Below are positions 1-9,213 of a stretch of 32,000 bases of DNA, piece after piece. The notes under the pieces were generated by a model. The model saw only the letters and a list, made by a program, of their open reading frames with translations, made no database searches and had not been told where the DNA came from. Every line of letters begins with the position of its first letter. Within the stretch, counting starts at the first letter, position 1. Both the position numbers and the translations under genes were made by a program. The stretch comes from Candidatus Thorarchaeota archaeon. Lineage in GTDB: Archaea > Asgardarchaeota > Heimdallarchaeia > Hodarchaeales > Hodarchaeaceae. The stretch lies in assembly GCA_048882505.1 (NCBI GenBank), contig JBHLRO010000008.1, positions 1 through 32,000 on the forward strand, given 5' to 3'.

Positions 1-125
1 GCTGTCAAGACTTTTTGCAGCATTGTGTCAAAATCATGCTTTATAAATGCCCTCGTGACCGTAACGACCGCCTCAAGCTGACGTTTGATTTGCCTGTCTT
101 CCGTTACGTCATCTTGATCTTCCAT
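1..125 (-). CDS. Partial hypothetical protein (N-terminus only, runs off window start)
   Basis: ATG at 125 opens a stop-free frame to the edge (MEDQDDVTEDRQIKRQLEAVVTVTRAFIKHDFDTMLQKVLTA), preceded by GGTAAGG; same strand as, and 85 nt downstream of, the GTPase gene. Not in ORF track. Confidence 0.45.
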   Translation of the reverse strand, partial: MEDQDDVTEDRQIKRQLEAVVTVTRAFIKHDFDTMLQKVLT

Positions 126-210
126 GGACCTTACCAGCCATGCTTATATTACCTGGATCTGATTAACTAAAAGAAAACAATTATCAAAGATATTGAAGGA
201 AGTTTGATAA

Positions 211-1152
211 CTAATTCATGTCTAATACTAGTTCATTCTCTGCATTAATTCCCGAATTGAGTAGAGCTTCCAAAAGGGGCATAATACCTTCACCTGTGAG
301 AGTCTCAGTTGCGAAAACCTTATTAGCGGGAACTTGGAATCTACGGGCAATAAACCTTTTTAAATCCTTCACAGTACTCAAATCCTTTTTATTTGCTGCT
401 ATACAATATGGTTTGTCCCAAAAAGTACGTAAATCCAGAAAACATTCTTGAGCCTTTTGCATTTGATCCCGCTTTGAACAATCAACAAAGAAAATGAATG
501 CATCAGAAATCTGATTAAATAAATACCAAAAAGGTTGGAAGCTGCTGCTTAGGTCAATGAAACGTAAACCAAAAGGAATTTCCTTAATCTCTGCTACTTC
601 TACCATTTCTAGTAGCCTGGTGGGTCTATAAGTGGCGAATTCTCTTAACTGCTGTCCATTTGTAAAAAATCGTGTGAAAGTTGTCTTTCCTGACTGAGCT
701 AGGCCCGTTAATGCAACAGTTACACGCGGTATGGCGTCTACCACGGCAAGAACAGTTCTACAAAGGAATTCGAAATCTCCTATCCGTTTGTATTGATCAT
801 AAGACGAGATATTTGAAACAGTTCTCGAAAGTACCACCAAAAATTTCCGAATTTTGTGTATGGCCATATTAGAGGTGGCGGTAGCCACCAAAAGGTTTGG
901 TCCAACAGATTGAAAAGCAATTAATTTGTCCTGATGTATTATAATCTGATTGGAAGGATCTTTCGCTTGTAAGGTACGAATGAAAGGTAAAATTTCTAAT
1001 ATGCTTGATTCTAGAGCAAATCCCATGGTAGATAGAACTACTGAATCGTTTGAATCTAATAGCTTGACTGAAAGCAATGTCACTGTTTCCACATTCGTAC
1101 CATCAGTTTGTAAATCCATTGGTTTCTTTGATAAGATTATGACTCTGTTCAA
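211..1152 (-). CDS. Arf-like small GTPase with N-terminal longin-like domain
   Basis: G1 GLAQSGKTT, G2 YRPT, degenerate G3 IDLSSS, FIFFVDCS, G4 ANKKD, TGEGI; ~135-aa N-terminal extension with a longin-like beta/alpha pattern. Track start 1152 is TTG; alternative ATG at 1119. Confidence 0.85.
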   Translation of the reverse strand: MNRVIILSKKPMDLQTDGTNVETVTLLSVKLLDSNDSVVLSTMGFALESSILEILPFIRTLQAKDPSNQIIIHQDKLIAFQSVGPNLLVATATSNMAIHKIRKFLVVLSRTVSNISSYDQYKRIGDFEFLCRTVLAVVDAIPRVTVALTGLAQSGKTTFTRFFTNGQQLREFATYRPTRLLEMVEVAEIKEIPFGLRFIDLSSSFQPFWYLFNQISDAFIFFVDCSKRDQMQKAQECFLDLRTFWDKPYCIAANKKDLSTVKDLKRFIARRFQVPANKVFATETLTGEGIMPLLEALLNSGINAENELVLDMN

Positions 1153-1347: not shown

Positions 1348-2628
1348 TTATGCCATTTTTACCATTGTATTTATTGTACGCGAACCAATCAACAATTGGA
1401 CGTTCCTTGTCCCTCCTACAACCTCGGAAATTTCTGATAATCCTTGATACATAGGCATCCTTGTCTGGTCAGTCACACCGGTACCACCCATGGCATGCAT
1501 TAGTTCGTAGCACAATTCATGATTTAAATATGCGCAATACTCCTTCATGTGGGAGGCTGTGGCGACGAAAGGATTCATTGTGACTGGAATTCCAACCAAC
1601 TCATGTGCTTTTGCATCGTAAGTCTCAGCAAGTTTGAGGAGTGCCATAGTAACCATCGAAAGACGCGCATGGTATTTAGCCATAACGCTCATGCCAATGG
1701 CCTGATGTCTCAATATTTTTTCACCGAATTGCTTTCTAATTGTTGTATAAATTGATGCCAGGGTGAAGGCACCCCACATATTTCCTACGCATTCTGCCGC
1801 AATTCCGATTCTTTCGGGCACCAATCCTTCAAAAAGGATCTCGTAACCTTTCCCATCATCGCCAGTGACGTAATCAAAGGGAATAAGAGCATCCTCGAAT
1901 ATAGTTTTTCCAATGTGAACCTTCGAAACAGAAGGGATACCTAATCTCTCTGCCCTAAATCCACGATTCCATTCTTTGTGTGAAACTCCTTGAACCATGG
2001 TACTGCGTGGATCCTCGTCGTTATACACGGCATAGACTGCGCACATATCAGCTTTCGGAGAATTTGTGGTATAACACTTTGTACCATTGATTACAATACC
2101 ATCGTCTGCCTTTTCCGCTTTCACTGTCATGTTAACGGCATCAGATCCACGATTAATTTCTGTAATCCCGATACATCCAATTTTGGTTCCATCGAATAAT
2201 CCCTCGAGGTCTTTGCGGAGGGGTTCAGGATTGTCTTTTTCCTTATAGTGATGAGCGATTGGATTTATGTTAAGGACTGAAGCGCCGAGAGCCATGGAAA
2301 ACTGTGGATTAAAAATATCCATGGTCCACTGTCTGAGAATTTCGGGTTTCAAACCGATCTTGAGATCATCACGGTGGGGGTACTCAGTTGACCTATTTAT
2401 GAGGCCATGCCTCCCTGCCCATGGAAACCAATCATAAACGTCCGCATTGTTATGGCCAGGAACGCCGCCAATCTTTTCGTCCTGTTCTAAACATAGATGT
2501 TGAATTTCTTGGACGAATTGCTTATCCTCCTCCTCAAGTAACATCATGAAATTAGCATTGAAGACAGCGTACTGTCGCTCCAGACTCATTGCATTCAAGA
2601 TGTCATCTTCAAGTAATTGAGTTTTCAT
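1348..2628 (-). CDS. Acyl-CoA dehydrogenase family protein
   Basis: GITEINRGSDA, INGTKCYTTN, PERIGIAA, RKQFG, MHAMGGTG, VVGGT motifs. Confidence 0.9.
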   Translation of the reverse strand: MKTQLLEDDILNAMSLERQYAVFNANFMMLLEEEDKQFVQEIQHLCLEQDEKIGGVPGHNNADVYDWFPWAGRHGLINRSTEYPHRDDLKIGLKPEILRQWTMDIFNPQFSMALGASVLNINPIAHHYKEKDNPEPLRKDLEGLFDGTKIGCIGITEINRGSDAVNMTVKAEKADDGIVINGTKCYTTNSPKADMCAVYAVYNDEDPRSTMVQGVSHKEWNRGFRAERLGIPSVSKVHIGKTIFEDALIPFDYVTGDDGKGYEILFEGLVPERIGIAAECVGNMWGAFTLASIYTTIRKQFGEKILRHQAIGMSVMAKYHARLSMVTMALLKLAETYDAKAHELVGIPVTMNPFVATASHMKEYCAYLNHELCYELMHAMGGTGVTDQTRMPMYQGLSEISEVVGGTRNVQLLIGSRTINTMVKMA

Positions 2629-4823: not shown

Positions 4824-7800
4824 TTATTCTAATTTTTTTCTATAATAAGATCCCGTGAAATACACGAGAATTGATGCAACTATAAGTATAGAGAAAATAG
4901 TGTCCTCTATTGATTGTTTGGGGATGATTGTGACGCTAACAATATCAAAATCGCTGATAGTATAGGTGCGGCTCGAAAAGATATCGTTAAGCTGGTGAAT
5001 AACAGTGAGATTTTCGTCCACAATCATGATTGACCTCAGGTGAAGAGTAAACTGATTAGCGGCAGATGGCAAGGAAAGAATACGGGAGGACGAAATAACC
5101 ACAGGGATTTCATGGCGGCCGCTTTCTAAGAATTCTTCGGGAGTAATGACTGTTACGTCGTAATAATTGTCGTCATCCTCGAAATCTATTTCTATTTGCA
5201 CGTACAAGGAATATAATGCCGCTTTATTGACACTAACCATCACTGTTATAGCTATTTCTTCAAATTCTGAGTCGAAATCCAGATTATTAGCTATCTCCCA
5301 GAATATTCCTGTTAGGTATGCATCTGGAGGATCAAATTGGCTGTAGGAATAGATTGAGGTTTGGTACGGGTGAACGAGTACATCGAGAAGATTTTCCTGA
5401 ACATCGTATAGTCTTAAGCGCCACAAAAAGTAACTAGTATCATCGAAAAGCAAGTATAAATAAGGAGACGGAAGTACAATCGATATATTGTGGATCCCTT
5501 CCTCCCACACAACATCAGGTGATTCGTCTAAACCAATAATGTCAGGGTCTAGACGCCATTCTTCCTCCTGTAAATTTAGTTCATAATGGTACAGGGCTGG
5601 TTGAGAAACATTGACCTCACAAGCAATAACCAATTCATCAAATTTACCATTTAGATCGGTATCGACCCCATAATCCCATATATTACCAGTTAAAAACGCA
5701 TTTGGGGGATCAAATTCCTCATATTGGTAGTATTGGCTAACGTATGGATGTTCTAACCAATCAATTCTGTTTCCATCGGAAAAAATCTCACACCAAAACT
5801 CATACGCAGAATCTAGGCCTAATGAATGGGCTAAGGTTACATAGATTGGTATCGTGACATTTCTAACACCTTTGGACATTAGCGAACTCGACGATCCACC
5901 AAAATCTGACCACCAGACGTTTATAAACGGCCTAACATTGAACTCGACGAAAATCCAGGCGCTTTCAGTGACGTTCACCTCCACAGTAAAGAGGAGCTCG
6001 TTTATCAAGCCATCTAGATCTGTGTCAACCCCAGTACTCCATATCCGACCAGTAAAGAAAGCGGTAGGAACTTCAAAATCCCTATAATGATACCGATTTG
6101 TAACATACGGGGTATCAACAGAATCCAGTAAATCATACTCTTGTGAATGGCGAACAAACGCCTCGGTGATTACAAAGGACGTATTCAGCCTTAGGGGAAA
6201 TATGTACCTTGCTCCAAAGGAAAAGTTGATATTATGTATCCCACGCCCCCATTGACCCTGAGCATCCATATAACCTCCCTCTATCCATCTCTGGTTCGAT
6301 TGATATGGAGAAATGGACAATTCCAGACGGTAATTTCCCGGTGCAGTCACGTTTATCTCTATTGAAAAGATCAAGGCTTCAAAAAGGCCGTTATTATCGA
6401 TATCTCGACCAATATCAGTATATTTTCCCGTGAAATAAACAAAAGGACGGCGGAATTGCGAATAACCATACTCCTGGGTAGTATAAACATCATAAGCAAT
6501 ATCATGAATTCTGTCAAATAGGTCTCGTATCCTAACGATCTCATACCGGAAAGATGAGTCTTTATGGAGACGAAAGATATCTTCGCCGCTCATGGAAAAG
6601 CTGATGTTTTGGATCCCTTTGGAGTATGGATATTGGGCTGATATAGAGAAACTGCGACGAGCTTCCTCCATTGAACCGTTTTGATCGAATGGGACAATCT
6701 CCAGCTCGAACCGAAAATCACTCGGAAAGGTAATGTTCACTTCCATAATAAGAACTAATTCCTCATACCTCCCGTCTGCATTTATATCAGTCGGAATATC
6801 CCAATAATTTCCAGTGAAAAGGGCTATAGGTTCAGGAAAATCCGTAAAATTATATATTTGCGTAACATAGGGGTATTCAGCTCGAAAATAATAGTTCCAG
6901 GAATCATGAATAGCGAATCTGATAATTTCAAAGGACGAATTCTCATAGAGAGAATAAAGCGAATTGGTTTCAAATTCAAATGTAACATTATGGATTCCTT
7001 TTCCAAAATATCGCTCCACCTCTTTCCATTGATCCCAATCACCATCATCTTTGGCGACAGGGTGAATAGCCAATTCATATTGATAAACACGGGGTTCCGA
7101 AATGTTCACTTCCACCACTATCACCAATCCTTCGAATTTTCCGTCTATATCACTGTCTACTCCCCAATCCCAGAACCTCCAAGTAGAGCTAGCTGTATGC
7201 ACGCCAAACTCTTCAAGATCATATTTCTTTGTTGTATAAGGATCCGTCAGGTATTGGTGCTCAACGTTATAAAAACTGAGTATTGTATAGCTCACGTTGT
7301 AGGTACCTGATAGTTCTCGAATCGTGAAATCTCTGGTAGGAAACGAAACCTCAATTACCTCATCTCTAGGGGTCAAAAACCCGTTCCAGTAGGTATCCAA
7401 TCCTGAGGTTGAACCAGGAAATGGACTTGCTTCCCCTAGATATATCCTCAAATCATATTGACCCGGATCAACGACATGAATATTCAATCGGAGGACAAGT
7501 TCGTCATAATATTGATCGCCATCGGAGTCTCTCCCAAAATCATAAAAACCAGTGATTTCGGCACTTGGTCTTTCAAATTCAGTATATTGATATGCGTTGG
7601 TTGTGTAGTTGACAGTGAAGCTTATTTCGGACAATTCCCACCATCCTTCATATGTGAAAACACCAGCTTGCACGACAAAGGGGCCGTTTACTCTATTCGC
7701 CCTGATTGGCTGACCAGCAAATGAAAGAGTAATATTTCCGTTCTGGATTCCCTGTCTGTCCTTTCCTATTAGAATACCGTTACTGTCTCTTAGCACTCCA

Positions 7801-8090
7801 TAAATGCCATCAATGTTTCCGGTATTATTAATCCTCCCTAAATCAACCATTAAACGGTTATATAGTCCATTATTGTCATCATCAATTGAATAGTCTCTCC
7901 ATGAGATATTTTCGAGCAGTAAATTTTGATTATTCTCTATAGATAGGCCTGGAGGTTTAGGTTGATTCCTTAATGGATCCATTAATCTTGAATCTTCGAG
8001 ATCATCTTCAGAAGAGGAAAACAGAGTTGTAAAAAACGAGCCAGAGGAGATCAAAACCAAAACAATCAGAAATCGTTGCAAGTACTTCAT
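4824..8090 (-). CDS. Large secreted, C-terminally anchored repeat protein (8 x ~124-aa repeats with DxDxDG motifs)
   Basis: Signal peptide MKYLQRFLIVLVLISS (ATG 8090; track starts at ATG 8111); repeats of D-x-D-x-D/N-G..LvvxVEVNI..PYxTxxY..F..P; C-terminal TM helix followed by RKK. Confidence 0.85.
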   Translation of the reverse strand: MKYLQRFLIVLVLISSGSFFTTLFSSSEDDLEDSRLMDPLRNQPKPPGLSIENNQNLLLENISWRDYSIDDDNNGLYNRLMVDLGRINNTGNIDGIYGVLRDSNGILIGKDRQGIQNGNITLSFAGQPIRANRVNGPFVVQAGVFTYEGWWELSEISFTVNYTTNAYQYTEFERPSAEITGFYDFGRDSDGDQYYDELVLRLNIHVVDPGQYDLRIYLGEASPFPGSTSGLDTYWNGFLTPRDEVIEVSFPTRDFTIRELSGTYNVSYTILSFYNVEHQYLTDPYTTKKYDLEEFGVHTASSTWRFWDWGVDSDIDGKFEGLVIVVEVNISEPRVYQYELAIHPVAKDDGDWDQWKEVERYFGKGIHNVTFEFETNSLYSLYENSSFEIIRFAIHDSWNYYFRAEYPYVTQIYNFTDFPEPIALFTGNYWDIPTDINADGRYEELVLIMEVNITFPSDFRFELEIVPFDQNGSMEEARRSFSISAQYPYSKGIQNISFSMSGEDIFRLHKDSSFRYEIVRIRDLFDRIHDIAYDVYTTQEYGYSQFRRPFVYFTGKYTDIGRDIDNNGLFEALIFSIEINVTAPGNYRLELSISPYQSNQRWIEGGYMDAQGQWGRGIHNINFSFGARYIFPLRLNTSFVITEAFVRHSQEYDLLDSVDTPYVTNRYHYRDFEVPTAFFTGRIWSTGVDTDLDGLINELLFTVEVNVTESAWIFVEFNVRPFINVWWSDFGGSSSSLMSKGVRNVTIPIYVTLAHSLGLDSAYEFWCEIFSDGNRIDWLEHPYVSQYYQYEEFDPPNAFLTGNIWDYGVDTDLNGKFDELVIACEVNVSQPALYHYELNLQEEEWRLDPDIIGLDESPDVVWEEGIHNISIVLPSPYLYLLFDDTSYFLWRLRLYDVQENLLDVLVHPYQTSIYSYSQFDPPDAYLTGIFWEIANNLDFDSEFEEIAITVMVSVNKAALYSLYVQIEIDFEDDDNYYDVTVITPEEFLESGRHEIPVVISSSRILSLPSAANQFTLHLRSIMIVDENLTVIHQLNDIFSSRTYTISDFDIVSVTIIPKQSIEDTIFSILIVASILVYFTGSYYRKKLE

Positions 8091-8175
8091 AGATGACCAT
8101 CGACAATCCATGAGCTACTCTTCATGCTTTAAACATAAATTATATATTTGCATAGATGATTTATTCAAAACCTTC

Positions 8176-9213
8176 CTAGTTTGAACTCGCCTCTTCGTAG
8201 TAACGGACAAGAAGTAATAATACCCGAGTCGTCCAATCAATATATCGATTACGTCTTCGCCTCCAATTTTCCGACAATGGTAAAAACCTGGAGGTAGGAA
8301 TTCTTTCTCCAAAATCCCAAAAATTATCAGCTTTTTGAATTTCCCATAGCCAGGTTATAGTTCTCCCTGCGGCCCTTTGCCAGCTCGGGAACCTTGAGAG
8401 GATTTCCTGGGATGTAAACCAGGCTTCGACGGAGGGAGGACGAGAAAGATTAGGTTTCACGTTTACTGGAACCCCCACATATCCAAGCCCTTTCTTGTTA
8501 CGCCATAGCCAATTGAAAAATCTCTTTTCAAGTAAGTTTGGAAGCTGATCCGCCCTTGATCCAAGTAAGGTTACCAGATATTTATTGTTTGCATGTAAAT
8601 AATGAAGATTATTCTTTGGCACAACTAGTCCATGGATATCCCTATGGGCTTGAACTTCTTTTAACACCGAATACTCCCCTGATCCAAAAGTTGCTTTAAT
8701 TATCTCTATCCATTGATGCCAAATTGGAGTGAGGATTGGATCCGTGGGTTGAACTAGTGCGAGGATTGAAGCCACGAATAGGCGGGTACCGATCGGCCAT
8801 CGTTCATTTTTTTCTTCAGGATCTGGAAAGCGGACGTTACCCTTAATGAGTTGATGCAAGTATTCAATTACTCGTTTGATAACTATGTCTTCCAAATTTA
8901 AACCCAAACTTACAGCTCGTTCAACACCCCATTCAGTTGTTCCAATCTTCTGCCTTTTCATGGTATTTAATGAGTGAAACCTACCCCAGCTTCCGTCTGG
9001 ACGTTGCTCCTGCTCAAGAATATCTATCCATCTGCTCCTTCTTAGATCATTTTTAGCATCTATAAGGCTTTTGGTCGTTTTTGAGACCATTAGCACGTCT
9101 CTGATTATTCTAACCTGTACCACTGGATCGGGATTGAGTGCCAGAGTTGCTCGAGCGATTTCCTTAATGAATTCAAGGCCTTGAATCTTCAGTCCCTCTA
9201 TGTTGGCAATCAA
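8176..9213 (-). CDS. Hypothetical protein, probable prenyltransferase/squalene-cyclase-like alpha/alpha toroid (QW motifs)
   Basis: EQRPDGSWG and IQKADNFWDFG resemble QxxDGxW repeats; no DxDD motif; TTG start, uncertain. Confidence 0.6.
   Translation of the reverse strand: MIANIEGLKIQGLEFIKEIARATLALNPDPVVQVRIIRDVLMVSKTTKSLIDAKNDLRRSRWIDILEQEQRPDGSWGRFHSLNTMKRQKIGTTEWGVERAVSLGLNLEDIVIKRVIEYLHQLIKGNVRFPDPEEKNERWPIGTRLFVASILALVQPTDPILTPIWHQWIEIIKATFGSGEYSVLKEVQAHRDIHGLVVPKNNLHYLHANNKYLVTLLGSRADQLPNLLEKRFFNWLWRNKKGLGYVGVPVNVKPNLSRPPSVEAWFTSQEILSRFPSWQRAAGRTITWLWEIQKADNFWDFGERIPTSRFLPLSENWRRRRNRYIDWTTRVLLLLVRYYEEASSN

Follow-up and report, generated by a model that had tools for sequence, protein, structure and literature searches.

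What would a small GTPase do when it is fused to a longin domain and the motif that supports hydrolysis in its relatives has been lost? The question is raised by a gene at the start of contig JBHLRO010000008.1 of a Candidatus Thorarchaeota archaeon (NCBI GenBank assembly GCA_048882505.1; GTDB order Hodarchaeales), of which we analyzed positions 1 to 32,000 of the forward strand, hereafter the window. The gene codes for a soluble protein of two domains, with an N-terminal longin-fold domain followed by a C-terminal Arf-family G domain. We are highly confident of its identity as a longin–Arf fusion belonging to a derived clade. Within this clade the residues that bind nucleotide are retained and the second switch region is degenerate, and the gene is kept under purifying selection.

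The longin–Arf gene and its start codon

An open reading frame (ORF) had been predicted at window positions 211 to 1152 as a longin-like domain fused to an Arf-like GTPase. The ORF exists and lies on the minus strand, as do all window features described below, and it can be read as 313 amino acids from a TTG codon at 1152. The start of the protein is a different matter. Judging from the orthologous sequences, translation most likely begins at a GTG at window position 1083 and the TTG at 1152 is probably unused, because the orthologues carry a Met at the homologous site (17 of 19) and the frame of a 91% identical copy in genome G061 is open for just 9 codons upstream of this start. NCBI annotates the G061 copy as a protein of 291 amino acids. 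All relatives, recovered by word-indexed and exhaustive protein searches and by a genome search, start opposite residue 24 of the 313-residue reading. With the start set by the 19 positional orthologues and the NCBI annotation, the longin–Arf coding sequence would span 214..1083 and encode 290 amino acids, with the stop codon at 211-213. The in-frame upstream extension (1084..1152), which begins with the TTG and has an ATG at its residue 12, is not conserved and is probably untranslated. Residue numbers for motifs and domains refer to the 290-residue form.

Placement of the G domain in the Arf family

The Arf-family G domain comprises residues 119-290 (214..729), as supported by Pfam, by profile matches in the PDB and by Foldseek. 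All of the Arf landmarks listed in the original prediction (GLAQSGKTT, PT, FIFFVD, ANKKD and TGEGI) are present. Pfam Arf (PF00025) matches residues 145-299 of the 313-residue reading with an E-value of 4e-9 and 36.6 bits (36.6-38.2) against a cut-off of 22.3, while the Ras hidden Markov model (HMM) scores 13.5 bits. Arf is also the best Pfam family for every one of the 20 orthologue G domains (3.4e-16); ten of these have weak matches to SRPRB as well. An NCBIfam scan returned sub-threshold Obg matches only.

Comparisons with proteins of known structure lead to the same family. A phmmer search of PDB sequences found Arf and Arl proteins only, the best being Candida albicans Arf1 at E 9e-7. A G-domain profile built from the 20 orthologues has its best PDB match in the Asgard protein GerdArfR1 (8OUN/8OUM) at E 9e-14, followed by Arl8, Arl13B (E 2e-10), Arl3, Arl2, Sar1, Arl6, Arl1, Arf1/6, Galpha and IFT22; the first 60 PDB matches include no Rab, Ras or Rag. 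In Foldseek, the full-length model aligns with Arl3, Arf1 and Arl1 at template modeling (TM) scores of 0.75-0.80. By these profile and Pfam searches, the G domain groups with the Arf family and not with Rag, Rab or Ras, in line with the original prediction. A full-length prediction with two copies, as a homodimer, scored 0.00 and weighs neither for nor against dimerization.

A Rag/Gtr GTPase was also considered and does not fit, as Gtr1_RagA has no match in the window protein at E-values up to 1 or in the 20 orthologues at E-values up to 0.1, and the extra domain is N-terminal and of longin type rather than a C-terminal roadblock. In the genome that contains the window, at least 60 ORFs pass the Pfam Arf cut-off and the window gene is 48th by score, so that its membership rests on Arf being the best family and not on the score itself. 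Many of these ORFs are probably Rab/Ras-like cross-matches to the Arf HMM; for a genome of 4.3 Mb, the set of small GTPases is very large.

Conserved nucleotide-binding motifs and a degenerate switch II

The motifs that contact the nucleotide are largely conserved. The G1 motif or P-loop, GLAQSGKTT (residues 127-135; 679..705), is intact, with G127, G132 and K133 invariant in 30 sequences. The switch I threonine T155 (619..621), in the context Y-x-P-T, is invariant in all aligned relatives. In the G4 motif NKKD (residues 231-234; 382..393), N231 and D234 are invariant and the Lys is replaced by M or F in some orthologues. At residue 232, 9 of the 20 orthologues read N-M-R-D or N-F-R-D, and Lys is not conserved in the clade. 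The G5-equivalent, T-E-T-L-T-G-E-G (residues 259-266; 286..309), takes the place of the Arf motif T-C-A-T-x-G-x-G. Overall, 38 alignment columns are invariant, the nucleotide-binding residues among them.

Switch II is different. It reads D177-L-S-S-S-F-Q-P-F-W186 in the window protein (526..555), with neither the catalytic Gln nor the glycine of G3. It is two residues shorter than its Arf counterpart, a gap that is visible in the HMMER alignment to 8OUN. The Mg-binding Asp D177 and the switch II Trp W186 are invariant. Across the clade, Arf D-x-G-G-Q has become D-L-G-[M/Y/K], so both the catalytic glutamine and the glycine that is universal in G3 are absent throughout; in the window copy the region reads F-I-D-L-S-S-S. 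The features that set Arf proteins apart include Leu and Asp as the second and third residues of G1 (G-L-D-x-x-G-K-T) and a third-position G3 glycine (PMC11914678). Many orthologues keep the former as GLDRSGK[T/S], whereas the window copy, with GLAQSGKT, keeps the Leu and has lost the Asp. The window copy and its 91% identical twin also lack the Arf-type glycine at the third position of G3.

The N-terminal domain is predicted to adopt a longin fold

The N-terminal domain (residues 1-118; 730..1083) was modeled with AlphaFold2 from a 19-row alignment, with a predicted local distance difference test (pLDDT) value of 89.9 and a predicted TM score (pTM) of 0.84. The modeled elements, with E for strand and H for helix, are E3-9, E15-18, H26-41, E46-50, E53-60, E63-70, H75-90 and H103-117, and the full-length model shows identical elements in this domain. 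The strings LSVKLL, VVLS, IIIH, LIAFQSV and LLVATA, from which a β-β-α-β-β-β-α order had been proposed, are all present in the sequence, and the model reproduces that order with a second helix at the C-terminal end. The arrangement is that of a longin domain, in which β1 has no preceding helix and two helices follow the last strand. Only L4, V6, S18, A69, L82, L85, F104 and C108 are invariant in this domain.

We compared the model with 48,161 PDB representatives using VIA-align, which is independent of Foldseek. The top structural matches are δ-COP (Z-score 11.5), SYBL1/VAMP7 (11.1), sedlin (11.0), AP-3 σ (10.8), synbindin (10.8) and Sec22 (10.4). Longin matches span residues 1..118 with Z-scores of 10.2-11.5 and 102-116 residues aligned; the N-terminal domains of AP μ, the SRX domain (2go5_1, Z 10.0; 5ck3_A, Z 9.4), Mon1 and the DENN longins come below the top longins. 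A longin fold had been anticipated for this domain, and the model bears that out. The assignment rests mainly on the predicted structure.

Could the domain instead belong to the roadblock/LC7 family? In Foldseek alone, LAMTOR roadblocks and VAMP7 longins are intermingled at E-values of about 1e-4, and a roadblock subunit of Ragulator (5y3a_G, E 4.7e-5) comes first, with many LAMTOR, MglB and Asgard roadblock matches next. However, the modeled topology, with no helix before β1 and two helices after β5, does not fit a roadblock, and in the VIA-align scan the roadblock proteins (MglC, MP1/p14 and Asgard roadblocks) score Z 8.5-9.9 and align just to residues 1..93-97, while the longins reach residue 118 with higher Z-scores. 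The only coherent sequence matches are also to longins. A mixed profile of both longin–Arf subfamilies (see below) matches the Ykt6 longin over the whole domain at E 0.015, and among the N-terminal domains of 19 relatives Pfam Longin (PF13774) is found in four (best E 0.0022), Fuz_longin_1 in two and Clat_adaptor_s in one. We therefore consider a roadblock domain very improbable. The N-terminal domain of the window protein itself has no Pfam match, and an ESM Atlas feature search with it was uninformative, the best score of 0.79 being to unnamed bacterial clusters.

Profile searches with the N-terminal domain also returned matches in other families of the class. We inspected these as candidate longin–Arf genes and rejected them, as their longin-like domains are joined not to GTPases but to regions that are helical or polytopic in the membrane. 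Three such ORFs (L058, L059 and L060) are about 290-310 amino acids long and combine a longin-like N-terminal domain with a region lacking G motifs, so that their length mimics that of longin–GTPase fusions. Two more, L061 (G033:C87) and L062 (G046:C4), are 440-470 amino acids long, with a longin-like N-terminal domain, matched by the profile at E 1e-10 to 1e-7, and a long hydrophobic region that appears to be polytopic in the membrane.

A fast-evolving clade confined to one genus

The longin–Arf protein has one match in each of the 22 genomes of its own GTDB genus and none in the 61 other genomes of the class (E 1e-15), and each of the 22 has an intact reading frame. Among 1.8 billion proteins, only 6 representatives match below 1e-30. 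The source names of the matching proteins are Hodarchaeales, Hodarchaeota or Heimdallarchaeota metagenome-assembled genome (MAG) proteins. The orthologues are positional, as an acyl-CoA dehydrogenase gene (1348..2628 in the window) lies upstream on the same strand throughout; it served both as the marker of orthology and as a control for evolutionary rate.

By this control the longin–Arf gene evolves quickly. Leaving aside the 91% copy in G061, the window protein is 31-37% identical to its orthologues, compared to 74-81% for acyl-CoA dehydrogenase across the genus; the remaining orthologues average 53% identity among themselves. Between the window gene and the 91% copy, at a synonymous divergence (dS) of about 0.43, the ratio of nonsynonymous to synonymous substitution rates (dN/dS) is 0.096 overall, 0.19 for the N-terminal domain and 0.041 for the G domain, with 0.022 for acyl-CoA dehydrogenase in the same two-genome comparison.

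Among the paralogues in the genome, the nearest is a second longin–Arf gene (C6:49161-50045), which has a canonical WDLGGQ motif. It scores 86 bits with the G-domain HMM of the window clade, compared to 49 bits for the next paralogue. In a maximum-likelihood tree (LG+C20) of 45 G domains, built without eukaryotic Arf, Sar1, SRβ or Rag references, the window clade (A) is monophyletic (support 100/99), and its stem measures 1.34 substitutions per site. Clade A joins the canonical longin–Arf group (B), which keeps WDLGGQ, at 91/85, and the window copy and its 91% twin are nested within A on a further branch of 1.32. The simplest history consistent with these sequences would be a single longin–Arf fusion, followed by duplication and accelerated divergence with loss of the switch II GQ. 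Since the clade is nested, long-branched and confined to one genus, the window gene is derived rather than ancestral. The original prediction had suggested an ancestral regulator–GTPase module, and a one-genus clade on a long branch beside the canonical group speaks against it.

The same genome (G000) also encodes two paralogues of 344-350 amino acids, at C4:210759-211823 (L003) and C23:25016-26077 (L004), in which the G domain comes first and carries canonical DLGGH or DLAGQ. A C-terminal extension of about 150 amino acids gives them a Rag-like domain order.

A sensor histidine kinase downstream of the gene

The window begins at the contig end, and the 230 bases left downstream of the gene align at 89% identity with the G061 locus. 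Read from this alignment, positions 1..126 hold the first 42 codons of a GAF–H-box–HATPase_c sensor histidine kinase gene, which is cut by the contig end. The 84-nt spacer between the two genes (127..210) contains a T-rich tract and an AT-rich box that precedes the kinase gene. In G061 the downstream gene is complete (L007:2459-3763) and encodes a soluble protein of 434 amino acids. It has GAF and HATPase_c domains and an H-box with the residues S-H-D, which together identify it as a sensor histidine kinase. Of the 19 other orthologous loci, 11 have a homologous gene on the same strand within 1.5 kb downstream, which makes 12 of 20 with the window. The association of the longin–Arf gene with the GAF kinase is suggestive. 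In some orthologous loci the downstream kinase homologue is 278 amino acids long and has no GAF domain.

Relatives from the canonical group also occur as single-chain longin–Arf–GAF proteins of about 470 amino acids in other Heimdallarchaeia families (P0010, P0017 and P0034). One longin–Arf–GAF fusion (L056:5001-6410) adjoins genes for a response regulator, a GAF-HisKA-HATPase_c kinase, a 471-residue Arf/Rag-like protein and PAS/receiver proteins.

We looked for conserved partners besides the kinase and rejected the candidates, as the P0002 and P0030 loci have only metabolic genes in common. The neighborhoods of the window, P0002 and P0030 loci contain no trafficking genes. Elsewhere in the window, the ORFs at 4824-8111 (1095 amino acids) and 8176-9213 (345 amino acids) have no Pfam match at E 0.001, and a 1035-residue gene near the orthologue at L006 likewise lacks Pfam matches.

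Proposed function and alternatives

Since the protein retains its P-loop, the Thr of switch I, the Asp that binds Mg and the Asn and Asp of G4, it has most likely kept the ability to bind guanine nucleotide. Its shortened switch II has neither the DxxG glycine nor the catalytic Gln, elements on which γ-phosphate sensing and Gln-dependent hydrolysis rely, so that hydrolysis of the Arf type, assisted by a GTPase-activating protein (GAP), is probably not possible. The protein would then stay in one nucleotide state as a long-lived nucleotide-bound adaptor, cycle slowly by another route, or hydrolyze only with residues provided in trans. At the N-terminus a globular longin domain of 118 residues takes the place of the amphipathic helix that Arf proteins couple to an interswitch toggle, and the C-terminal tail has no CAAX-type or other lipidation motif. 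We infer that the protein may act as a cytosolic, nucleotide-dependent adaptor. Its longin domain could be a protein-binding platform, as suggested by the biology of longin and roadblock domains (PMC10933270), and from the gene context the GAF sensor histidine kinase directly downstream would be the likeliest pathway partner. A locked switch coupled to the kinase in this way is a tentative mechanism. A further reading, which we consider unlikely, is that the clade is a nucleotide-locked pseudo-switch that serves the neighboring GAF sensor histidine kinase as a regulatory subunit. For the favored explanation in full, in which the secure identity and the tentative mechanism have to be balanced against each other, our judgment comes down narrowly on its side.

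Several points weigh against this explanation. Both nucleotide binding and impaired hydrolysis are read from motifs, and some GTPases hydrolyze GTP without the Gln by means of residues supplied in trans. The kinase adjoins just 12 of 20 loci, all in one genus, and the synteny may simply be inherited. The T-rich tract in the spacer could end transcription, in which case the two genes may be transcribed separately, and the GAF domain of the fusion P0010 has no BLASTP similarity to the GAF domain of the downstream kinase. With respect to identity, support for the longin assignment from sequence alone is weak. Profiles of the N-terminal domain from a single subfamily, either this clade or the canonical one, find no PDB longin, and the profiles of the two subfamilies align to each other with an hhalign probability of just 16%, although in the correct register.

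One alternative is that the protein is a self-contained regulator and GTPase, with the longin domain docked in cis on the switch face and setting the nucleotide state independently of the kinase. There is precedent in the SRX domain of SRα, which clamps SRβ-GTP, and in MglB acting on MglA, and SRX is among the good structural matches of the N-terminal domain. Longin and roadblock domains are known platforms for GTPases (PMC10933270), half of the orthologue G domains have the weak SRPRB matches, and the covalent fusion itself favors a relationship in cis. However, other longins match better than SRX does, and the G domain is nearer to ArfR/Arl than to SRβ. The N-terminal domain shows neither a conserved Arg nor any other residue that would be a catalytic candidate, and the pTM of the full-length model is just 0.58, leaving the inter-domain geometry undefined. 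On balance we find docking in cis unlikely, though worth keeping in view.

Less probable still is that the protein works as an Arf-type membrane switch in a proto-trafficking system, where it would act as a GTP-dependent recruiter on membranes. The protein is a member of the Arf family, and membrane binding in yeast is known for other Asgard ArfR/AArf proteins (bioRxiv 10.1101/2024.02.28.582541; PMC11914678). Those proteins use an N-terminal amphipathic helix, where the window protein has a globular longin domain instead, and action on membranes is regarded as improbable for AArfs that have additional N-terminal domains (PMC11914678). Switch II without DxxGQ, the restriction to one genus, the fast evolution and the lack of trafficking genes nearby also argue against such a role. 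A part in membrane biology had been proposed for this protein in the original prediction; with no amphipathic helix or lipidation motif, a degenerate switch II and a soluble GAF histidine kinase as the recurrent neighbor, that proposal fares poorly. Might the gene instead be a decaying or functionless longin–Arf duplicate, which lost its motifs under relaxed constraint? The long stem branch and the second long branch to the window copy would fit, as would the loss of the G3 glycine and Gln and, in the window copy, of the last G3 Gly and of the Asp typical of G1 in Arf. However, the frame is intact in all 22 genomes, the low dN/dS between the two closest copies (0.096, with 0.041 for the G domain, at dS 0.43) reflects constraint, and the invariant columns include the nucleotide-binding residues. 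Decay is the least credible of these readings.

Comparison with known longin and Arf systems

The longin–Arf architecture has been known in Asgard archaea since 2016, and was described again in 2024-25, so the architecture found here is not new. For Lokiarchaeum, fusion to Arf-like GTPases was reported for five longin domains (Klinger et al. 2016, as cited in PMC4917890). Longin/roadblock–GTPase architectures have since been described in MK-D1 (PMC10933270), and AArfs with longin N-termini have also been described (PMC11914678). Like the window protein, these fusions place the longin domain before the Arf-family G domain, come from the same superphylum and have no N-terminal amphipathic helix. 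In the window clade, by contrast, switch II is shortened and has no DxxGQ, and the clade is found in one genus and evolves much faster than its neighbors. The accession NHJ01182 is named in none of the papers that we read, and in these we found no description of a one-genus, fast-evolving, selectively maintained longin–Arf clade with a shortened, DxxGQ-less switch II beside a GAF kinase.

Within the genome, the C6 paralogue belongs to the sister clade and is also a longin-type N-terminal domain with an Arf G domain, at about 295 amino acids. However, it keeps WDLGGQ, NKQD and the G5 motif SAL, and its full-length identity to the window protein is about 20%. The nearest solved G domain is that of GerdArfR1, matched over profile positions 3-159. 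GerdArfR1 and HodArfR1 differ from the window protein in being single-domain proteins with a membrane-binding N-terminal amphipathic helix together with an intact catalytic Gln; the structures 8OUM and 8OUN are from the work on Asgard ArfR proteins (bioRxiv 10.1101/2024.02.28.582541).

Among eukaryotic systems, the SRX domain of SRα with SRβ is likewise a longin-like domain paired with an Arf-related GTPase. It consists of two polypeptides, with SRβ anchored in the membrane, whereas the window protein is a single chain in which no anchor is seen. Atypical eukaryotic members of the Arf family without the catalytic Gln also exist, such as Arl13B, which is among the top profile matches and shares the Arf fold and a switch II that departs from the canonical form. 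In Arl13B the DxxG glycine is retained and further domains are present, and it has no specific relationship to the window protein.

Eukaryotic trafficking and nutrient-signaling switches have at their core small GTPases paired with longin or roadblock domains, and Asgard archaea hold prokaryotic forms of such pairs. In the window clade, which belongs to the lineage nearest to eukaryotes, selection has preserved a longin–Arf fusion that no longer has the canonical hydrolysis motif. If the unlikely pseudo-switch reading is correct, an Arf-family GTPase of eukaryotic type would be coupled physically and directly, by way of a longin platform, to a prokaryotic two-component system, and the single-chain longin–Arf–GAF proteins of other Heimdallarchaeia families point toward the same coupling. 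The longin–Arf protein and the GAF kinase provide a concrete pair to test. The recurrence of such fusions beside GAF histidine kinases supports cytosolic signaling, rather than vesicle budding, as the likely role of at least some Asgard Arf-like proteins.

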